Part shown: positions 2,561-32,949 of the stretch, piece by piece
Layout: each line of letters opens with the position of its first letter
How positions within the stretch are numbered: position 1 is the first letter of the stretch
Position numbers and translations under genes: made by a program
Source of the DNA: a virus
Reading direction: 5' to 3' (one strand)
Virus record (IMG/VR): IMGVR_UViG_3300045988_077922
Location: 1-33,775 of that record
DNA length: 33,775 bases
The notes under the pieces: generated by a model
The model's input: the letters and a program-made list of their open reading frames with translations, nothing else
Databases searched by the model: none
Told to the model about the DNA's origin: nothing

Positions 2561-3178
2561 ATGTTGGCAGAGGTAATAGCGAAGACAACCGAGTTCCCGT
2601 TGAAGCTGATCGGGTCGGTTGCAGGCGTATCGACCGCGAGGGGAGGAAGCGAAAAGGACATAGCCAACAGAACGCGTCATTGCTTCGAGCTTGGTCATAT
2701 GAGCGTTTTCGAGCACGTAAGCGTTACGTGGGAGATCGGCGGCATCAGTCGTGCCTGCTCGCATCAGCTGGTGCGGCATCGCCTGGCTAGTTTCTGCCAG
2801 CAGAGCCAGCGTTACGTCAAGGTCTGTACGGACAGCACGGATTGGTACGTGATACCGCCATCCATCAGGGAAGACGATCTGAAGTGCGTTGAGTACGAGG
2901 TTGCAATGTACCAATGCGCAAAGCATTACAATTCGCTGCTCAAGAAGGGAGTGAAGCCAGAGGATGCACGTTTCGCGCTTCCAGAAGCCACAAAGACGGC
3001 GATCGTGGCAACCATGAACCTTCGAGAGTTCGCGAGCTTCTACGCGCTGCGCACCGACAAGGCGGCTCAGTGGGAGATTCGCGAGCTTGCCAAGGAGATG
3101 TTCGATGGGCTTCAGCTCATTGGCGGCGAGTGGAAGGACTTCACGGAGATGATCGAGGAGGTGCGCGATGGAGATTAA
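2561..3178 (+). CDS. thyX: Flavin-dependent thymidylate synthase ThyX
   Basis: The ThyX signature RHRLASFCQQSQRY (RHRxxSxxxxSxRY) is present, with a typical length of about 205 aa. Confidence 0.9.
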   Translation: MLAEVIAKTTEFPLKLIGSVAGVSTARGGSEKDIANRTRHCFELGHMSVFEHVSVTWEIGGISRACSHQLVRHRLASFCQQSQRYVKVCTDSTDWYVIPPSIREDDLKCVEYEVAMYQCAKHYNSLLKKGVKPEDARFALPEATKTAIVATMNLREFASFYALRTDKAAQWEIRELAKEMFDGLQLIGGEWKDFTEMIEEVRDGD

Positions 3179-5340: not shown

Positions 5341-5353
5341 GAGGTCGGAAAGA

Positions 5354-5584
5354 ATGAAAGAGTACATCATTCCAAGCAAGATGTATCAGGTGCTGAAATG
5401 GCTCGGGCTTATCGCATGCCCCGCAATCGCAACCTTCATAGGCGCGGTGTTCCCTGCGTGGGGAATCCCGAACGCCGATGCAGTCGTGCTCACGCTCAAC
5501 GCAACGGGCGTTCTAATCGGTGCCCTGATCGGAGTCAGCACGGCAACCTCGCGCCAGGCAGACGATGAGGAGGTGCAGAAATGA
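5354..5584 (+). CDS. Holin (Dp-1-type holin family pattern)
   Basis: [52 protein letters not shown] is followed by a charged tail. An ATGA overlap links it to the endolysin. Confidence 0.75.
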
Positions 5585-6627
5585 CCATGCAAGGCATCGA
5601 CTGCGCATCATATCAGGCGGGCATCGACCCGTCCGTGGTTCCGTGCGATTTCGTAATCGTGAAGAGCACTCAGGGCACGACGTACGTAAATCCAGACTTC
5701 CGCAGACTGGCAGAAGCCACGCTCGCGGCTGGCAAGGCTCTGGGCATCTACCATTACGCGAGCGGCGGCAACGCCACGGACGAAGCCAACCACATGCTCG
5801 ACGTGGCGGGCGGATACATCGGGCGGGCAATCTTCTGCCTAGACTGGGAGGGTATCCAGAACAGCGCGTTTGACAGCGGGCGCGACTCGGCTTGGATTGA
5901 CGAGTTTTGCAGCGTAATCGAAAACCGCGTCGGCTCTGAATGTCTGGTCTACCTGAGCAAGTCCGTCATGGGGTATGCAGCAGGTCACAAGCTGTGGGTG
6001 GCTCAGTACGCCAACATGAACCGCACGGGCTACCAGGACAACCCATGGAACGAGGGAGCTTACGACTGCACTATCCGCCAATACACTTCCATGGGACGCT
6101 TGGACGGCTGGGGCGGTGACCTCGACTTGGACAAGGCATACATGAGCCGAGAGGAATGGGACGCATGGGCGGCAGGAAACGGCGCTTCATCACCAGCTGG
6201 GAAGAGCAACGAGCAGATTGCCGACGAGGTAATCGAAGGCCAGTGGGGAAATGGAGACGATAGGCGCAACCGTCTAGCAAGCGCTGGATACGACTACGAC
6301 GCTATCCAGTCGATCGTCAACGCAAAGCTCCAGCCTTCGAGAAAGAGCAACGAGCAGATCGCAGACGAGGTTATCAACGGCGCATGGGGCAACGGAAACG
6401 ATAGGCGCAACCGCCTTGCCCAGGCAGGGTACGACCCTGACGCTATCCAGTCGATCGTGAACACGAAGCTTGGCGTATCGGCTCGGCAGACCTACACGGT
6501 CAAGAGAGGCGACACGCTCTCGGGAATCGCCGCCAAGTACGGCACGTCGTGGCAGCACCTCGCAGAGCTGAACGGACTCGTCAACCCGAACATCATCTAT
6601 CCAGGACAAGTTCTTACGATCGGATAA
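5581..6627 (+). CDS. Endolysin: GH25 muramidase + 2 x CW_7 repeats + LysM
   Basis: GIDCASYQ...[18 protein letters not shown]...GIYHYA is GH25-like. Two 47-aa repeats ([36 protein letters not shown]) are CW_7-like. The C-terminus [29 protein letters not shown]...IYPGQVLTI is LysM-like. Confidence 0.9.
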
Positions 6628-6671
6628 CCAGCGGCAAACAGAACATGAAGACATCTGAGCAAGACCACCAG

Positions 6672-6706
6672 GCGGCTCCCGTTAGCGCGGGGGCTGCTTT
6701 CATTCT
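6672..6706 (+). terminator. Rho-independent terminator after the lysis cassette
   Basis: Stem GCGGCTCCCG, loop ttagcg, stem CGGGGGCTGC (two G-U pairs), followed by TTTCATTCT. Confidence 0.7.
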
Positions 6707-6724
6707 GACGATTGGAGTGACTAT

Positions 6725-7699
6725 ATGATAGAGACAATTACGCTCGACACTCGCAAGTGCCACTCGCCAGCATGCAAGCAGCGCATACCACCGCTTCGGC
6801 GCGGAGAGCGGAACAACCTGCTGCTTACGGTTAAGATCTGCGAGGACAGGAAGCCCTACGACCTCACTGGCAAGACCGCGAGCCTGGTCGCGACCACGGC
6901 GGCGGGAGCCTCGGTGGGGCCGTATCGGCTCGAAATCGCAGACGAGGCGGCTGGCGTTGTCCGCATCCTCCTTCCCAGCTCCCTGTACTCGGCAATCGGG
7001 ACTTTTACGGGCTACGTCGAGATTCGCGAGGGCGAGTCGATGGTCGACACGACGGACTCCTTTGGCGGCCGCGTAATCGACTGCATCGTCCCATCATCTG
7101 GCGAGCAGGTCGGCGCGTACGCTAACCTGGGCGACTACCGCAGCGGCGAGCAGGCTTCTTGGACATATCCGACCCAGGAGGGCATGGCGTTCGCGGGCTG
7201 GTACAGGGACGCAGCGTTCGAGGAGCCGTGCGGGGTCGAGGACGTGGACGGCTTCGCGTACGCGAAGTTCGTCAAGGTGGCCGACCTGTTTCAGTCAATG
7301 GGCTGCTCTCTCAACATGAGCGGGAACGTCCCCGCAGAGTACACGACCCCGAGGTTCTCATACACCATGTCGATTCCAGAGGGTGTAGCGTTCATCGAGA
7401 ATGGCTGGTACTTCAAGAAGGTGACCGACCCAACGAAGCCAGACGTGCGAAGCCTGTCGGTCAACAACATCGTACAGGCGGGAAACAAAGTCTTTGCCTC
7501 GCTGACGTTCATCAAGGTGCCCGTCAGGCTCTACGAGAAGAAGTTCTCGACGAAGGCGTTCGTCAAGTACGCGACTGCCGACGGGACAACCGTAGAGGCG
7601 GTCGAGGCGGATTACGATGCCTTCCGCCGCGGCAATCAAGGCCGCGATTCAGAAGGAATAGTCGGCAAACGGCACCGAGACCATGAACAGGTGAGGTGA
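6725..7699 (+). CDS. BppU_N-like domain protein with a Listeria-Bacteroides (Flg_new-type) repeat; orphan fibre/adhesin-like protein
   Basis: The N-terminus ...LRRGERNNLLLTVKI.EDRKPYDLTGKTASL...GVVRILLPSSLYSAIGTFTGYVEI resembles the baseplate-upper-protein N-domain pattern. MAFAGWYRDAAFEEP resembles the F-x-GWY-x-D repeat. Confidence 0.5.
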   Translation: MIETITLDTRKCHSPACKQRIPPLRRGERNNLLLTVKICEDRKPYDLTGKTASLVATTAAGASVGPYRLEIADEAAGVVRILLPSSLYSAIGTFTGYVEIREGESMVDTTDSFGGRVIDCIVPSSGEQVGAYANLGDYRSGEQASWTYPTQEGMAFAGWYRDAAFEEPCGVEDVDGFAYAKFVKVADLFQSMGCSLNMSGNVPAEYTTPRFSYTMSIPEGVAFIENGWYFKKVTDPTKPDVRSLSVNNIVQAGNKVFASLTFIKVPVRLYEKKFSTKAFVKYATADGTTVEAVEADYDAFRRGNQGRDSEGIVGKRHRDHEQVR

Positions 7700-7703
7700 T
7701 TCT

Positions 7704-8081
7704 ATGGGAGCGTATAAGGCATGCCCACGATGCGGGAGGATTCACCCATACGGCCAGCCATGCCCGATGAAGAAGCCAACCTATCGTTACGAGAGGGAAG
7801 GAGCGGACAGGCTCAGGTTCACATCTAGGTGGAAGAGGAAGAGCCTTCAGGTCAGGGACGATGCGCACTGGATGTGTGAGGTGTGCAGGGACAAGGGGAA
7901 GGCAACGACCGAGGGGCTTGAAGTCCACCACATCGAGAAGCTACGCGATGACCCAGACGGGCTGATTGAAGACGATAACCTCGTGTGCCTGTGCAAGATG
8001 CATCATAGGATGGCTGACGATGGGGAGCTGACGAAGGATTACCTGCGAGGGCTTGCAGCCAAGAGGATTGAGGGCAATTAA
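7704..8081 (+). CDS. HNH endonuclease (terminase-associated type found in cos phages)
   Basis: CPRCGRIH...CEVC...LEVHHIEKL...NLVCLCKMHHRMADDG carries HNH and zinc-ligand motifs. Confidence 0.85.
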   Translation: MGAYKACPRCGRIHPYGQPCPMKKPTYRYEREGADRLRFTSRWKRKSLQVRDDAHWMCEVCRDKGKATTEGLEVHHIEKLRDDPDGLIEDDNLVCLCKMHHRMADDGELTKDYLRGLAAKRIEGN

Positions 8082-8342
8082 GGCGGTGGCATAGGGAAAC
8101 GCTTCAGATAACCTAGGGAAAACAACCCCGCCCTACCCGAAGGGCAGTTCTGGCGCGCTCCCCGCCATCAAAATGCCCTAGGGAAGACACTAAATTTCTA
8201 ATATGCTGGGCTTTTTTGGAAAACGGCGGTTTATGGAGTGAAAAACTCCAATTATCATTCAATACAGGCGATTATCGGGAAATCTATCGAGCGTTTTCCC
8301 CCATAGCGCCTTCTAACGTATCGAGAAAGGAGTTTTCAAGGC
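8082..8342. other. Non-coding region; candidate cos site / terminase recognition region and late promoter
   Basis: This is the largest non-coding stretch between + strand genes, located between the HNH gene and the packaging operon. Direct repeats cctagggaaaaca (8112-8124) and cctagggaagaca (8177-8189) flank a GC-rich core that contains GCCCTacccgaAGGGC and 2 x ccccgcc. A third TAGGGAAA lies at 8092 and a hairpin TGGAGTgaaaaACTCCA at 8234-8250. Confidence 0.4.
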
Positions 8343-8915
8343 ATGGAAAAGACAAAAGTGACCTACATGGACATTGATTCGCTGATCTCGTACGCGAACA
8401 ACCCGCGATTGAACGACAACGCGGTGGATGCGGTGGCCGCGAGCATCAAAGAGTTCGGTTTCAAGGTTCCCATCGTGGTTGACGGCGAGAACGTCATCAT
8501 CAACGGGCACACGCGCCTGAAGGCGGCGCACAAGCTTGGATTGAAGCAGGTTCCAGTCATCGTGGCGGACGATCTGACGCCCGAGCAGGTGAAGGCGTTC
8601 CGTCTGGCCGACAACAAGACGAATGAGTTCGCCGAATGGGACATGGACAAGCTGCAAATCGAGCTTGAGGGCATCGACGAAATCGACATGGGCGAGTTCG
8701 GGTTCGATGACGCGCTCGACATATCGGATGACATGGAGCCAATCGACGATGAAGAAATCGGCAACGCTATGGCTCAGGAACACAAGATGAAGCTAGACGG
8801 CTCGACAATCATCCTAACCGAAGATGAATACAACCTCATTCGTTCGAAGCTCGACCAGTATCTGGATGCGAACGGGGTCAGCTACGGGTTTGTGGGGTGG
8901 CTTATCAATGGTTAG
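8343..8915 (+). CDS. ParB N-terminal (ParB/Srx-fold) domain protein with an acidic tail
   Basis: YANNPRLNDNAVDAVAASIKEFGFKVPIVVDGENVIINGHTRLKAAHKLGLKQVPVIV...FRLADNK is the ParB-N domain of the type usually fused to phage DNA methylases. No MTase motifs follow it. Confidence 0.8.
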   Translation: MEKTKVTYMDIDSLISYANNPRLNDNAVDAVAASIKEFGFKVPIVVDGENVIINGHTRLKAAHKLGLKQVPVIVADDLTPEQVKAFRLADNKTNEFAEWDMDKLQIELEGIDEIDMGEFGFDDALDISDDMEPIDDEEIGNAMAQEHKMKLDGSTIILTEDEYNLIRSKLDQYLDANGVSYGFVGWLING

Positions 8916-9147
8916 CTATGTTGACATTGAAGCGATAAAGCCAGCTGCATACAACCCGCGCAAGATTACGAAGGAGCAGCAGCAGGAGCTTTGCAAGAGC
9001 ATACGCAGGTTCGGGCTAATCGTGCCGATTCTCGTCAACCGCAAGGACAACGTTATCATCGCGGGACACCAAAGGACGAAGGCCACGCGTCTCGTGGGGG
9101 ATTCAGACAGTCCCAGTGCAGTACGTCGAGAGCATCAACCTCGGTGA
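8908..9147 (+). CDS. Second ParB N-terminal domain, 5' fragment (frame broken at the G5 tract 9096-9100)
   Basis: The product MVSYVDIEAIKPAAYNPRKITKEQQQELCKSIRRFGLIVPILVNRKDNVIIAGHQRTKATRLVG then becomes nonsense. The expected continuation IQTVPVQYVE is in the +1 frame. Confidence 0.7.
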   Translation: MVSYVDIEAIKPAAYNPRKITKEQQQELCKSIRRFGLIVPILVNRKDNVIIAGHQRTKATRLVGDSDSPSAVRREHQPR

Positions 9148-10279
9148 CGGAATCAAGTTCAACCAGATTCACAACGCTACCGAGTCTGGAATCGTCAAGG
9201 TGAGGTTCGACGGGGACGCGGAGAAAGGGAAGTTCATCGAGCTTGACAACGAGGACTTCACGACCATCAAGAACACGGCAACCGTGGTGAAGGAGATTTG
9301 CGGCCTTACGCTGAAATATGGGAACGTGCTTTCGGCTGTCATCTGCAAGGGCGATGTGATTCTCGGCGGCGATTACGTCAAGGCATGCAAGGTTCTCGGC
9401 CTGAAGGTCAACGCCTATGTCTGCGACGATTCGATGCATGACGATCTGCTCCATTATTTCGGCGAGGACTACGGCGAGTATTCCTACGACCACATCAAGC
9501 GCGATACTTACGTTCAGGGCCTTGCACAGCTCTACAGGAGCGTGAGCCGCGACGATGGAAAGCGCGCACAGCATTCGACGCTGTACGTGCGACACGTGAT
9601 TCCGTATCTCAAAGAGCACTCTTCGGCGAGCACGGTTCTCGATTTCGGATGCGGAAAGGGAGACTACATCAGGCATCTGAAGAAAATGGGGTATGAAGCG
9701 CTGGGAGTTGAGTTCTTCAACAACAACGGCAAGGCAATAGACGTGTCGAAGGGCAACCGCATGATTGACGCCCTAGTGAAGCACCTGCAAGAGCGCAGGC
9801 AATTCGACGTGGTAGTATGCGACAGCGTGCTGAACAGCGTTGACTCCATGAAGGCCGAGCGGAGTGTAATCGACTTCCTGAACCTCATGGCAAGCGACAG
9901 GCTTTTCATCAGCGTCAGGCCGCTGGATTACGTGACGCGAATGATGAAGTGCAAGAAGGACGCTGCGAACGCATGGCGTGCGGTCGAGTTCTTGGACGCT
10001 GACAACTTCAGCGCTAACTACCGAAGCGGGAAATGGTACTTCCAGCACTACCACAGCAAGGAGCAGATAAAGAAGTCGCTCGAAGAGAGCGGATTCGAAA
10101 TCGTCAAGCTCGACTGGGAGAAGTGGGGCAGCAGTTGGCAGTGCGAAGCGGTGAAGGTCAGGGAGCTGCCGTTGCAGCGTTACATCGACGCCATCGACTT
10201 CGAGTTCGACCTCCCGCTTCCGAACGGCAGAAGCTACAAGCGAAATGGAGACGTGAAAAAGGCGCTGAACCTCGAGTGA
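9116..10279 (+). CDS. Class-I SAM-dependent methyltransferase with a degenerate ParB-like segment; 3' part of the frameshifted ParB-MTase gene (homology continues upstream to 9101)
   Basis: Motif I is VLDFGCGKGDY, with acidic GVE and FDVVVCDSVLNSV following. The tail ...SKEQIKKSLEESGFEIV is typical of class-I MTases. No DPPY, NPPY, SPPY or C5-MTase motifs were seen. Confidence 0.75.
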   Translation: MQYVESINLGDGIKFNQIHNATESGIVKVRFDGDAEKGKFIELDNEDFTTIKNTATVVKEICGLTLKYGNVLSAVICKGDVILGGDYVKACKVLGLKVNAYVCDDSMHDDLLHYFGEDYGEYSYDHIKRDTYVQGLAQLYRSVSRDDGKRAQHSTLYVRHVIPYLKEHSSASTVLDFGCGKGDYIRHLKKMGYEALGVEFFNNNGKAIDVSKGNRMIDALVKHLQERRQFDVVVCDSVLNSVDSMKAERSVIDFLNLMASDRLFISVRPLDYVTRMMKCKKDAANAWRAVEFLDADNFSANYRSGKWYFQHYHSKEQIKKSLEESGFEIVKLDWEKWGSSWQCEAVKVRELPLQRYIDAIDFEFDLPLPNGRSYKRNGDVKKALNLE

Positions 10280-10333
10280 TATAGGGGTATACTTGTACAA
10301 GCGAGGTCTTACAGGAGAAAGGAGAGCGATTCT

Positions 10334-10768
10334 ATGATTATCAAGTCTATAGAGGTCGAGGGAACGTTCAAATACCTATGGCTGAAGTCGGTGAGGGATG
10401 TCGATTTGTCGCGCCATTGCGCCAGATGCCTTGTAGGTGACTATGACGGCAGAATCAACAACAGGCTGAGGGAAGCGCACGACATAGAGCTTGGCGAAGA
10501 CGTGTACTACCTCTGCGGAGTCTCGCAACCCTACAGGTGTGAGAACAACTTCCATCTGGCGTTCAGGCGCAAGGAAGGGAGCACAATCGATTACTCTTCG
10601 AATGGCGTGACGGTGAGAATCGAGGGAGCAGAGCGCCTTCCAATTGACGCGAAATACAACAACCCAGCGGACAGGCACTACAGGACTAAATCCTATTGCA
10701 CGTGCAGGAACTGGCAGTTCGCTAACTACTCCGAGACGCATATGAAGAGAGGTGCCGAGAATGGCTAA
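10334..10768 (+). CDS. Hypothetical protein (unknown; C-terminal CxC...xH motif)
   Basis: A 144-aa ORF preceded by RBS aggagaaaggag. YCTCRNWQFANYSETH is loosely SWIM-like but lacks one Cys. Confidence 0.55.
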   Translation: MIIKSIEVEGTFKYLWLKSVRDVDLSRHCARCLVGDYDGRINNRLREAHDIELGEDVYYLCGVSQPYRCENNFHLAFRRKEGSTIDYSSNGVTVRIEGAERLPIDAKYNNPADRHYRTKSYCTCRNWQFANYSETHMKRGAENG

Positions 10769-11132
10769 GCAATCGCTAAACGAGCAAGCGCGCGAGATTC
10801 TCAGGATTGCGGAGGAGACTGGCGTACAGACAAACTTCTTCTTCGTGACAACGTTCAAGCGTTATCAGGTACAGCTCAACAACCTCACAGAGCTTGAGTC
10901 GGCGATTCGCGAGACGGGAACGCTCGTTACGAAGGAGTATGTCAAGGGTCGCGCGAACATCTACGTGAACCCAGCCGTGACCGAGTATAACAAGACCACG
11001 GACAGCGCCAACAGAACGGTGACCACGCTCATGAAAATCATCAAGGGATTCGCCAAGGAGGACGAGGAGCGCGACTCTGGATATGACCCTCTCATGGCGA
11101 TAATCAACGGTGACAGCGATGGCGAGGAATAG
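10761..11132 (+). CDS. Terminase small subunit (P27-family-like)
   Basis: Located immediately upstream of TerL. The pattern MAKQSLNEQAREILRIAEETG...YQVQLNNLTELESAIRETG...YVNPAVTEYNKTTDSANRTVTTLMKI fits the family. Confidence 0.7.
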   Translation: MAKQSLNEQAREILRIAEETGVQTNFFFVTTFKRYQVQLNNLTELESAIRETGTLVTKEYVKGRANIYVNPAVTEYNKTTDSANRTVTTLMKIIKGFAKEDEERDSGYDPLMAIINGDSDGEE

Positions 11133-12804
11133 GGGCTACGAGTACTGTGAGCGTGCGATAGACGCGGAAACCACCCCGAAGTACGCCAAGAAGCAGATGC
11201 GCCTATGGATGGACGTTTGCGAGGGAAAGAGCGACAAGTATTTCGTCAGCGCCGAGAAGATTCACCAGATGGAGTCAATCCTCAAACTGCTTATCATGCC
11301 GAAGGGCCTGAAGGCTGGGCAGACGCTATACGAATGCACGACTGGCTACCAATGGCTGCTCTACATCGCCGTTCTGTGCACCGTCTACCGTGACAATCCT
11401 GAGAAGCGGCGCTACGAAATCGGGCTGCTGGAAATCGCCCGCAAGAACTTCAAGACGTACACGGTAGCGACCATCTTTATCATTCTCATGCTGACCGAGC
11501 CGCGATTCTCGGAGTTCTTCTCGGTCGCACCAGACGGGTCGCTATCAAGGCAGATACGCGAAGCAATCTCGCAGACCCTGCGCTCGTCCCCGCTGGTCTA
11601 CGAGTACAAGGGCAACAAACGCTTCAAGATTCTGCGCGACTGCATCACGTTCAGACCGAAGAGTTCGGCATACGTCCCCCTGAGCTATTCAACGTCTCGA
11701 ATGGATGGCCGACTTCCAAGCGCCTTCTGCGCGGACGAGGTCGGTGCGCTTCCTACAAGCTACGCGGTAGAAGCGATGAAGTCTGGACAGCTCAACATCC
11801 TAAACAAGCTCGGCTTCATCATCAGCACCAAGTACCCGACAATCGACAACCCTTTCGAGGACGAGGTTTCGTATGCGAAGAAGGTGCTCGACGGCATCGT
11901 TGAAGACGATACGGTTTTCGCGCTGCTTTACGAGCCAGACGAAACCAAGGATTGGATGACCGACGATTTGGCCATGCGCCAGGCAAATCCCGTCAGCTTG
12001 GAGATTCCCGAGATCTGGGAGGACTTGAGGAAGAAACGAGCCTACGCAATAGCGGTCGAATCGGCACGCGAGAACTTCCTAACCAAGCACTGCAACATCA
12101 TCTATCAGGGTCAGGGCACGGAGACGTTCATCGACACTGCGGACGTGCAGGCATGCAAGGTGGCAGACATCGACTGGAAGGGCCGCGTCGTGTATCTGGG
12201 GCTAGACCTTTCGGAGACGAACGACAACACGGCGGTTGCGATGGTAGCGGCAGACGATGACGGAAACATCCTCGCCGATGTTTTCGCATTCGTTCCTGAG
12301 GGACGCATCCCCGAGAAGAACGCCTATGAGAAAATCGACTACAACGAGTTCGTCAGAGCTGGAAAGTGCATCGCCTGCGGGGACAGGGTTATCGACTACA
12401 AGGTTGTCGAGGACTTCATTCTCGGCATCGAATCGAAGTACGGCGTGCAGGTGCAGGCAATCGGTTACGACCGATGGAACGCGCTCAGCACCGCGCAGAA
12501 GCTGGAAGGCGCGGGATACAACACGGTCGAAATCAGGCAGCATTCCAGCGTGCTCCATCCGCCGACAAAGCTGCTCAAGGAGAAGATCATTTGCGGCGAG
12601 TTCGAATACATCGACAACAAGCTGCTCGAAATCAACTTCCAGAACGCGCGTTGCAGCTACGACACCAACAAAAACATGTACGTGCACAAAAAGAAGTCGA
12701 AGGGCAAGGTCGATATGGTGGTTTCGCTTATCAACGCCGTATACTTGCTCCAGCAGGACGTTGTGTTCAATCAAATGCCTGACTTCACGGTTCAGGTTAT
12801 CTAA
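11110..12804 (+). CDS. Terminase large subunit (Terminase_1 / HK97-like); alternative ATG start at 11119
   Basis: The product is 564 aa with a P-loop region LEIARKNFKT, a Walker-B-like FCADEVGA, and a C-terminal nuclease region with VYLGLDLS...D motifs. Confidence 0.85.
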   Translation: MTAMARNRGYEYCERAIDAETTPKYAKKQMRLWMDVCEGKSDKYFVSAEKIHQMESILKLLIMPKGLKAGQTLYECTTGYQWLLYIAVLCTVYRDNPEKRRYEIGLLEIARKNFKTYTVATIFIILMLTEPRFSEFFSVAPDGSLSRQIREAISQTLRSSPLVYEYKGNKRFKILRDCITFRPKSSAYVPLSYSTSRMDGRLPSAFCADEVGALPTSYAVEAMKSGQLNILNKLGFIISTKYPTIDNPFEDEVSYAKKVLDGIVEDDTVFALLYEPDETKDWMTDDLAMRQANPVSLEIPEIWEDLRKKRAYAIAVESARENFLTKHCNIIYQGQGTETFIDTADVQACKVADIDWKGRVVYLGLDLSETNDNTAVAMVAADDDGNILADVFAFVPEGRIPEKNAYEKIDYNEFVRAGKCIACGDRVIDYKVVEDFILGIESKYGVQVQAIGYDRWNALSTAQKLEGAGYNTVEIRQHSSVLHPPTKLLKEKIICGEFEYIDNKLLEINFQNARCSYDTNKNMYVHKKKSKGKVDMVVSLINAVYLLQQDVVFNQMPDFTVQVI

Positions 12805-32538: not shown

Positions 32539-32949
32539 ATGAAAATCAAACTCGATAAGGGCGCGCTCATTCCTACACGTGCCCACGGCACGGACGCGGG
32601 GGCAGACCTTCGCTCGCCAATCGAAACGGTGGTTCCCGCGAGGGGTTCGTGCATCATCGACACTGGCGTGCATATCCAGCTGCCGCACGGCTTCGTCGGC
32701 ATGTTGAAGAGCAAGTCAGGGCTGAACGTCGAGCACGGCATCACGTCCGAGGGCGTTATCGACGAGGGCTATACGGGGTCAATCAAGGTTAAGCTATACA
32801 ACCACAGTTACAGCCCTTACAAAATCGAGCGATATGACAAGATTACGCAGCTGGTCATCGTGCCCTGCGAGTACGTGCAATTCGACCTGGTGGACGATCT
32901 GGAGGATTCAGAGCGAGGAGGTGACGGCTTTGGCAGCACGGGCAAGTAA
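32539..32949 (+). CDS. dut: dUTP diphosphatase (trimeric dUTPase)
   Basis: AGADL, GMLKSKSGL, GVIDEGYTG and the C-terminal RGGDGFGSTG motifs are all present. Confidence 0.9.
   Translation: MKIKLDKGALIPTRAHGTDAGADLRSPIETVVPARGSCIIDTGVHIQLPHGFVGMLKSKSGLNVEHGITSEGVIDEGYTGSIKVKLYNHSYSPYKIERYDKITQLVIVPCEYVQFDLVDDLEDSERGGDGFGSTGK

Follow-up and report, generated by a model that had tools for sequence, protein, structure and literature searches.

A ParB-methyltransferase phage module with fixed partners and a conserved position in front of the terminase genes

The 33,775-nucleotide IMG/VR virus record IMGVR_UViG_3300045988_077922 (the window, i.e. the whole stretch of DNA analysed, to which all positions given here refer) is a complete ~34-kb genome of a temperate siphophage. 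Upstream of its terminase genes, it encodes a small acidic ParB/Srx-fold protein (open reading frame 1, ORF1), a fusion of a ParB domain, a degenerate ParB-like domain and a class-I S-adenosylmethionine (SAM) methyltransferase (MTase) domain (ORF2), and a conserved protein of 144 amino acids (aa), p144. We find that ORF2 belongs to a widespread phage and prophage protein family in which its partners and its position before the terminase are conserved, and that the family has suffered repeated losses in the lineage of the window, where the ORF2 copy itself is broken and most likely non-functional. Judged by its sequence, the MTase is of the generic class-I type and not of the N6/N4 or C5 DNA type. 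We propose, tentatively, that the module is a nucleoside triphosphate (NTP)-gated, ParB-tethered methyltransferase that may act late in infection to modify nucleic acid of the phage, probably its DNA.

Domain anatomy of the fusion and of its small ParB partner

ORF2 starts at an ATG at position 8908 that overlaps the stop of ORF1, and its product begins MVSYVD...AGHQRTKATRLVG up to the point where the frame is lost. In the window it is split into two ORFs: a 79-aa ORF (8908-9147, +), which contains the ParB_N domain with its GHQR box, runs off frame after residue 64 and ends at a stop at 9145-9147, and a 387-aa ORF (9116-10279, +), in which the rest of ParB_N is followed by a degenerate repeat of the ParB-like fold (about 9200-9463, +) and by the domain of a class-I SAM methyltransferase (about 9578-10276, +). 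The break is caused by a one-base insertion in a run of five Gs (9096-9100, +), where alignment to two relatives, L006 and the intact L007, reveals one extra G. Removing one G from this run yields a protein of 456 aa, exactly the repaired fusion described in an initial annotation of the window made from its sequence alone; residue numbers below refer to this protein.

At the N-terminus of the repaired protein, residues 3-70 match ParB_N (PF02195, E=5.4e-11), and the ParB domain also matches the phage DNA-methylase family phrog_498 (2.5e-22). Residues 229-400 match Methyltransf_23 (PF13489, E=9.9e-12), and this domain matches Methyltransf_11, Methyltransf_25 and similar generic Pfam families as well. 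Its SAM-binding motif I, VLDFGCGKG, is read at 9635-9661 (+), in agreement with the Rossmann MTase first noticed there. In an alignment of 60 homologues, R56 of the AGHQR box (residues 52-56) is invariant, as are D245, F246, G247, C248 and G249 (DFGCG) of motif I and, elsewhere in the MTase domain, E268, C304, S306, V307, N309, R372 and the C-terminal EF.LPLP, among others. The ParB and MTase domains are both basic (isoelectric points (pI) of 9.3 and 8.4, respectively).

An AlphaFold2 (AF2) model was computed from a 95%-identical intact homologue and the 60 homologues (predicted local distance difference test (pLDDT) score of 86, predicted template modelling (pTM) score of 0.82). It comprises a ParB_N domain (residues 1-90), a second domain (residues 98-185) and a Rossmann methyltransferase (residues 224-456) preceded by a low-confidence linker. 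The second domain repeats the strand-helix-strand-strand-helix-strand-helix order of the first, and hhalign aligns the two in register (E=0.014) with GHQR opposite G..Y, so that the arginine of the nucleotide pocket has been lost there. This bears out the initial description of the segment as degenerate and ParB-like. When the family profile was searched against the PDB, the only real match was that of the ParB domain to ParB, Spo0J and Noc structures (3e-10 to 4e-6), the best match of the MTase part being at E=0.0087.

We next consider the type of the methyltransferase. The motif [DNS]PP[YFW] is found in none of the 60 family members, PCQ and ENV motifs are absent from the repaired protein, and the MTase has no Pfam match to the C5 family (PF00145) and none at E<=1 to the N6/N4 families (PF01555, PF02384, MT-A70), the latter being absent from the PDB fold matches listed as well. 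This agrees with the initial annotation, in which neither DPPY/NPPY/SPPY nor C5 motifs could be found, and which had named the firm placement of the MTase in a known DNA N6/N4 family as a result that would speak against it; profile and fold searches place the domain in no known DNA-methylase family. The best PDB fold matches are instead small-molecule and RNA class-I enzymes, namely cg3271 (3h2b), ChlM, the glycine/sarcosine methyltransferases GSMT/GNMT, Trm9 and a cap N7-MTase, all of them weak (template modelling (TM) scores of 0.5-0.6, identities of 11-20%). Searches of the PDB and BFVD with the fold of the fusion returned generic Rossmann methyltransferases and ParB proteins only and gave no substrate lead. 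More specific candidates were rejected: the NCBIfam models DVU_1556, MetW, BioC, UbiG and TIGR04096 match the SAM-binding core only and score far under their cutoffs, TIGR04096, the DNA phosphorothioation-associated methyltransferase, reaching 22 bits against a cutoff of 150 through motif I only, and the PADLOC match to mad2 of MADS (9.2e-5) is likewise limited to the Rossmann core.

ORF1 (8343-8915, +; 190 aa) is the second ParB/Srx-fold protein of the module, and the initial description of two such proteins holds. Its residues 7-88 match Pfam ParB_N (E=1.8e-7), the protein matches phrog_620 at 9.6e-54, and residues 3-138 match the ParB part of phrog_498 (2e-42); PADLOC MTase_II matches the same ParB part (1.3e-25). 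ORF1 is thus of the ParB type that is fused to N6/N4 methylases, as had been suggested. Its NTP-binding domain, with NPR, GHTR and DN motifs, is followed by an acidic linker and then by a C-terminal domain that is conserved. The “acidic tail” originally ascribed to it exists as a run of acidic sequence (residues 100-145, approximately), yet the protein continues past it into this conserved C-terminal domain of about 45 aa. A cognate small ParB is located directly 5’ of the ParB-MTase gene in most loci, with two copies in Bacteroidales, and spans Firmicutes, Bacteroidota, Spirochaetota, Chlorobiota, Verrucomicrobiota and Proteobacteria. These small ParB partners have the NPR, GxxR and DN motifs in common, G55, D90, N91 and E162 are invariant in their alignment, and a module-specific C-terminal motif, IPLTEEE...ENG..GF, is kept even at 25-30% identity. 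Acidity is a strong feature of this family, which has a median pI of 4.5 and a net charge of about -17. The linker between its domains is variable in sequence and always acidic, a feature that recalls DNA-mimic proteins. A canonical partition ParB of the ParABS type was also considered and rejected: the two ParB proteins score 41 and 38 bits against TIGR00180 (partition ParB; cutoff 58.45), the Pfam-annotated genes of the phage genome include no ParA, and a search of 7600-11200 for parS-like inverted repeats or arrays returned only short two-copy matches.

Family spread, position before the terminase and recurrent loss

Repaired ORF2 aligns over residues 1-453 with positions 2-452 of 458 of PHROG 5475, a family of unknown function (1.1e-80). 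At E<=1e-10 it has 554 homologues, mostly 452-460 aa in length and mostly single intact ORFs, the best being 456 aa long and 95% identical; with its 79-aa and 387-aa ORFs, the window copy departs from the single frame of the PHROG 5475 family. An exhaustive search of 1.84 billion representatives with the MTase domain alone found only 435 relatives. All three domains are present in 101 of the 150 best of these, and most of the others look like fragments. Thus, the MTase is essentially confined to the ParB architecture. Full-length members are found in prophages and phages of Clostridia, Bacteroidales, Treponema, Chlorobiaceae, Verrucomicrobiota, Kiritimatiellae, Planctomycetota, Armatimonadota, Alphaproteobacteria and Enterobacterales. 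Phage carriers include Bacteroides phage BS-TP3, the Yersinia phages vB_YpM_39/41/44, one E. coli phage and one Brochothrix phage. In E. coli, the ORF1-ORF2 pair resides on phage-plasmids of 47-49 kb in 71 of 5426 complete genomes, where the two genes are annotated merely as ParB-domain proteins. Apparent ORF1-ORF2 fusions in five loci (L024, L026, L028, L031 and L032) were rejected: their N-terminal extensions are unlike ORF1 and are present because the longest ORF was taken in GC-rich DNA.

The third gene, p144 (10334-10768, +), has no match in Pfam, PHROG, NCBIfam or PADLOC, nor in GenBank records of cultured phages. Its AF2 model is confident (pLDDT 95) and shows a beta-sandwich plus a C-terminal helix, for which the PDB holds no match (best E=0.13). 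Its homologues form 95 clusters and share the motifs LWLK, HCA.CL.G.Y, YYLCGVS.PY.W.NNFHLAF and TCRNWQFA. The gene lies downstream of the ParB-MTase gene in about a third of loci, adjoining it in Treponema, Clostridia, Bacteroidales, Armatimonadales and one JGI phage contig; the distant loci in which the two genes recur together include a contig with a lambda-type GpA terminase.

The gene order in the window is HNH / ParB / ParB-MTase / p144 / small terminase (TerS) / large terminase (TerL). The HNH endonuclease (7704-8081, +) is of the terminase-associated type (Pfam HNH 7.5e-5; phrog_144 1e-18), and the terminase genes (10752-12804, +) comprise a small terminase candidate at 10752-11132 and a large terminase at 11110-12804 (Terminase_4 0.002; phrog_13845 1.5e-46; TerL_ATPase and TerL_nuclease). 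The order from ParB to TerS had been given correctly, and the link to packaging genes that it suggested is conserved well beyond this phage. Four mutually unrelated families of large terminase (Terminase_6, Terminase_3, TerL_ATPase and GpA) are represented among the four genes downstream of the module in 26 non-redundant loci, together with ten portal proteins. The genes upstream vary between loci; RtcB accounts for only 2 of the 90 upstream proteins scanned, and genes for tRNA, RNA repair or signalling show no consistent association with the module. Phage DNA methylases, too, are commonly located just before the terminase.

On its 5’ side, the module adjoins a spacer (8082-8342, between HNH and ORF1) that is probably the physical end of the genome (cos). 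The termini of three independent metagenome contigs, one from the same phage and two from ~92% relatives, map within it to 8160, about 8180 and 8195, and a direct repeat, CCTAGGGAA(A/G)ACA, occurs at 8112 and 8177, flanking a GC-rich hairpin at 8126-8147. These termini lend weight to the putative cos site of the initial annotation. Promoter and terminator scans gave nothing usefully above shuffled controls.

In two loci, further genes of possible interest accompany the module. On an E. coli plasmid (L075; NZ_CP064105.1, 5793-12797), an MT-A70 methyltransferase lies upstream of the pair, and a third ParB/Srx gene (196 aa) is located directly 5’ of the putative small terminase, so that ParB-fold genes have multiplied around the packaging region. 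In a Clostridia prophage (L033, with near-duplicate L030), a MetK-like SAM synthetase with all three Pfam domains (L033:4081-5247) is encoded two genes upstream of the ParB-MTase and p144 genes.

We then asked what the lesion in the window represents. The same sequence, including the extra G, is present in at least two other assemblies (L004 and L005), and the frameshift is therefore not a one-off read error. The relative L006, which like L007 has one base fewer at the G5 site, is broken independently by a GAA-to-TAA nonsense codon about 28 codons downstream. Other alleles have suffered in-frame internal deletions that take out the SAM-binding region (P0013 and P0113) or are truncated (P0020), and at least six different deletions have created in-frame fusions of an ORF1 or ORF2 N-terminus with the p144 C-terminus (alleles P0150, P0156, P0208, P0211, P0212 and P0215; loci L080, L081 and L082), with microhomologies of 2-4 residues (e.g. 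PID, RTK, AE) at the junctions. Two deletion alleles were verified on contigs of 31.6 and 33.8 kb, the latter recurring in a second sample; both contigs keep TerS, TerL and the portal gene, as well as ORF1 where it is undeleted. Intact 456-aa alleles are nevertheless the commonest, one of them (P0001) representing 167 member sequences. Thus, the window copy of ORF2 is most likely non-functional and is one of many independent losses in the lineage. Because such null alleles sit in otherwise complete phage contigs, the MTase is dispensable in this lineage. Dispensability of the module, with no change in DNA modification or host range, had been named at the outset as a result that would count against a modification or anti-defence role; the many independent inactivations go part of the way towards it. 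A different pattern was seen in two alleles from Logan assemblies (P0017 and P0021), which are set apart from the window protein by dense substitutions (Y>H, I>V/T, L>P, N>S, V>A) of the kind that A-to-G and T-to-C changes would give; in one of the two, p144 is also reached by read-through of a stop. Ordinary divergence does not look like this, and hypermutation, or chemical treatment of the sequencing library, seems the likelier origin.

Candidate functions of the module

How might such a module work? In the mechanism that we tentatively favour, the two GxxR-bearing ParB NTP-binding domains, that of ORF1 and that at the N-terminus of ORF2, would form a nucleotide-gated switch in which ATP or CTP drives their association. 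The switch would then engage the dedicated SAM methyltransferase and tether it to nucleic acid, most probably phage DNA. The module would be expressed with the late genes and so provide progeny genomes with a non-canonical methyl mark, which may help them escape host restriction. NTP gating is suggested because both ParB domains keep the NPR/GxxR motifs and match CTP-binding ParB/Spo0J/Noc structures. DNA is the most probable substrate because the ParB domains belong to a DNA-methylase-associated clade, because the module occupies the genomic slot of DNA methylases, and because the ParB and MTase domains of ORF2 are basic. We would argue, on these sequence grounds, for a case of domain displacement, in which a different MTase has come to occupy an architecture and a position normally held by N6/N4 DNA methylases. 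The pairing of ORF1 with ORF2 and the anti-restriction role are likewise putative. Since MTase residues are invariant across phyla, catalysis is favoured over a vestigial role, and the repeated losses, together with the SAM synthetase near the module in one prophage, fit an active SAM-consuming enzyme under fluctuating selection. Repeated loss would be expected from an arms race with modification-dependent restriction, or from a cost in lysogens.

Several observations weigh against this mechanism. Natural null alleles occur in apparently complete phage genomes, i.e. the module is not needed for persistence. Neither ORF1 nor ORF2 has a helix-turn-helix (HTH) for DNA binding, and the 7600-11200 region offers no convincing parS-like array. 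The [DNS]PP[YFW] motif is missing throughout the 60 members, and the nearest folds of the MTase act on substrates other than DNA. Finally, a 2026 study of a ParB homologue that activates a DNA-modifying enzyme could not show that NTP binding is important for this activity (PMC13229309).

Some of these points lead to a second explanation, which we regard as possible although less probable: the MTase would act on something other than DNA, be it an RNA (such as a tRNA of the host or of the phage, as a means of escaping anticodon nucleases), one of the proteins that package DNA, or a signalling nucleotide or small molecule, and the ParB domains would serve as an NTP sensor or regulator and not as a tether. 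The nearest structures are indeed small-molecule, tRNA (Trm9) and mRNA-cap methyltransferases, the Pfam placement is the generic Methyltransf_23/11/25, and the module lacks both a DNA-methylase motif and an HTH. ParB folds of phages are also found fused to the RNA-associated PUA-like and UPF0020 domains, and Srx and SerK demonstrate that the fold can serve small-molecule chemistry (PMC12704722). The structural matches, however, are too weak and non-specific to point to a substrate, linkage to tRNA, RNA-repair or signalling genes is not consistent (RtcB again in only 2 of 90 upstream proteins), and the clade of the ParB domains and the pre-terminase slot are both those of phage DNA methylases. 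For these reasons the tethered, DNA-directed methyltransferase is preferred.

A fuller version of the DNA-directed mechanism can be drawn, which as a whole we consider doubtful. In it, the module would be a self-targeting epigenetic writer: ORF1 and the ParB-MTase would be loaded near cos as an NTP-dependent clamp and slide along the phage genome, placing a non-canonical DNA methyl mark (not m6A, m4C or m5C) on phage and not on host DNA. p144 would be a specificity or anti-restriction subunit, and loss of the module would reflect counter-selection by modification-dependent restriction.

An accessory role in packaging or at the genome ends is unlikely. Here, the ParB proteins would bind or nick at or near cos, aiding cutting by terminase and HNH or protecting the ends, and the MTase domain would be regulatory or vestigial. 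The module does adjoin the probable cos end, between the HNH and TerS genes, and keeps its pre-terminase position with four terminase families. This last point cuts both ways, as an accessory bound to a single kind of terminase should not be found travelling with four families that are unrelated. Moreover, invariance from phylum to phylum of the residues that bind SAM, and of others in the MTase, speaks for catalysis, alleles without the MTase (and sometimes without most of ORF1 or p144) are found in full-length contigs that keep TerS and TerL, and nuclease claims for ParB folds are debated. Nicking activity, which would favour such a role, is reported for a ParB-methylase of a B. cereus prophage, as cited in PMC5512222.

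Very improbable is a functional frameshift at 9096-9100, in which a programmed +1 slip on GUG GGG GAU, or transcriptional slippage, would set the ratio of the 79-aa ParB fragment to the full fusion: the P-site tRNA-Gly on GGG can re-pair +1 in the G5 run to restore the family-consensus ...RLVGIQTVPVQY..., the identical lesion recurs in several assemblies and the gene of another relative is also broken in this stretch between the domains, but close relatives have the gene in frame with no G run (CGGA or AGGG there), which makes a programmed slip unlikely, the break in L006 is a plain nonsense codon with no slip site, many other alleles are deletions, the usual slow codon or stimulatory element is absent, and more than 500 homologues are single ORFs.

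Genome setting, known systems and significance

The remainder of the genome is that of a temperate phage. Besides the ParB module, HNH endonuclease and TerS/TerL, the window encodes a serine integrase, a CI-like repressor, a Rad52-like protein, SSB, a dUTPase, a DnaC-like protein, ThyX, a holin, a GH25 lysin, a portal, a protease, and capsid and tail proteins. ThyX (Thy1 domain, a flavin-dependent thymidylate synthase) and the dUTPase are encoded at 2561-3178 and around 32539-32949. The phage genome showed no further gene for DNA modification and no DNA methylase, and dioxygenase, kinase and glycosyltransferase genes are absent from the window. The lysis cassette (~5350-7699) consists of a Dp-1-type holin, a GH25-CW_7-LysM lysin (5581-6627) and a BppU_N-domain protein (6725-7699), and is placed 5’ of the HNH and packaging genes and not after the tail genes, an order unusual for a temperate siphophage. 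No GenBank phage matches the DNA of the module region at near identity; metagenomes are the sole known source of the phage.

The module shares features with four types of known systems. The closest is the ParB-Methyltransf_23 fusion noted by Kaljevic et al. (PNAS 2025, PMC12704722) in a survey of the ParB-CTPase fold, which lists phage fusions to DUF3850, DUF4417, N6_N4 MTase and Methyltransf_23 and describes ParB fusions as enriched in prophages and acting “perhaps in anti-defense”. In that study, a gut-phage ParB-Methyltransf_23 protein and a mutant of its GxxR pocket were purified, ATP binding was reported for ParB-fold SAM-methyltransferase fusions, and the Methyltransf_23 domain was termed a “predicted DNA methyltransferase”, without evidence. 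Repaired ORF2 has the domain composition, the ~456-aa length and the phage/prophage enrichment of PHROG 5475 and of this fusion, its likeness to the purified protein (uvig_65837_18) being one of fusion type. The architecture is thus already catalogued, and the initial view of the module as uncharacterised is right as to substrate, none having been assigned to the Methyltransf_23 fusion in any paper found by literature search, but not as to architecture, which is known from PHROG 5475 and PMC12704722. Nor does the literature name partners of the fusion or describe its genomic setting. The degenerate ParB-like domain, the small ParB that goes with the enzyme, p144, the conserved place before the terminase and the repeated losses are reported by the present analysis only.

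The second type is a ParB partner of a DNA-modifying enzyme. The 2026 study cited above describes a phage ParB homologue, comprising a nucleotide-binding domain (NBD) and a C-terminal domain (CTD) but no HTH, that activates its cognate DNA thymine dioxygenase (5mYOX-ParB; PMC13229309). ORF1 has the same NBD-linker-CTD layout without HTH and lies beside a putative modifying enzyme; by analogy, ORF1 may have an activating role. The two systems differ in their enzymes, that of the window being a SAM methyltransferase with a ParB domain of its own.

The third comprises ParB fusions to DNA methylases. ParB-N6-adenine methylase fusions have long been known (PMC5512222). In the phrog_498 fusions (PF02195+PF01555), which are found on mobile elements, the N-terminal ParB is of the same clade as those of ORF1 and ORF2, and the genes often lie near the terminase or genome end, as in Vibrio phage X29 (positions 155-490 of the record). 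ORF2 differs from these in its unrelated catalytic domain, with neither PF01555 nor a DPPY-type motif, in its extra ParB-like domain and in the linked, separate small ParB. The fourth type is that of the CTP-dependent DNA clamps, namely the partition ParB of ParABS, Noc and KorB. With these the module has in common the N-terminal fold and the NPR/GxxR pocket motifs, but an HTH, a partner of the ParA type and parS-like repeats are all missing from it.

Overall, the interpretation given in the initial annotation is partly supported: its anatomy was sound and its stance on function suitably agnostic. ParB-fold proteins are emerging as nucleotide-gated switches beyond chromosome segregation, and ParB-Methyltransf_23 is among the commonest phage ParB fusions. 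The analysis defines the family as a conserved module of two or three genes, in which the partners and the place before the terminase are fixed. These features, together with the near-exclusive architecture, the lack of a DNA-methylase signature and the recurrent loss, make the system experimentally tractable. As a broken allele, the window copy is unsuited to such work; cultured hosts offer intact ones, on the E. coli phage-plasmids, in the Yersinia phages and in Bacteroides phage BS-TP3. A DNA substrate would make the family a DNA methyltransferase of a new chemical class, and any other substrate would make it a new kind of NTP-regulated phage effector.

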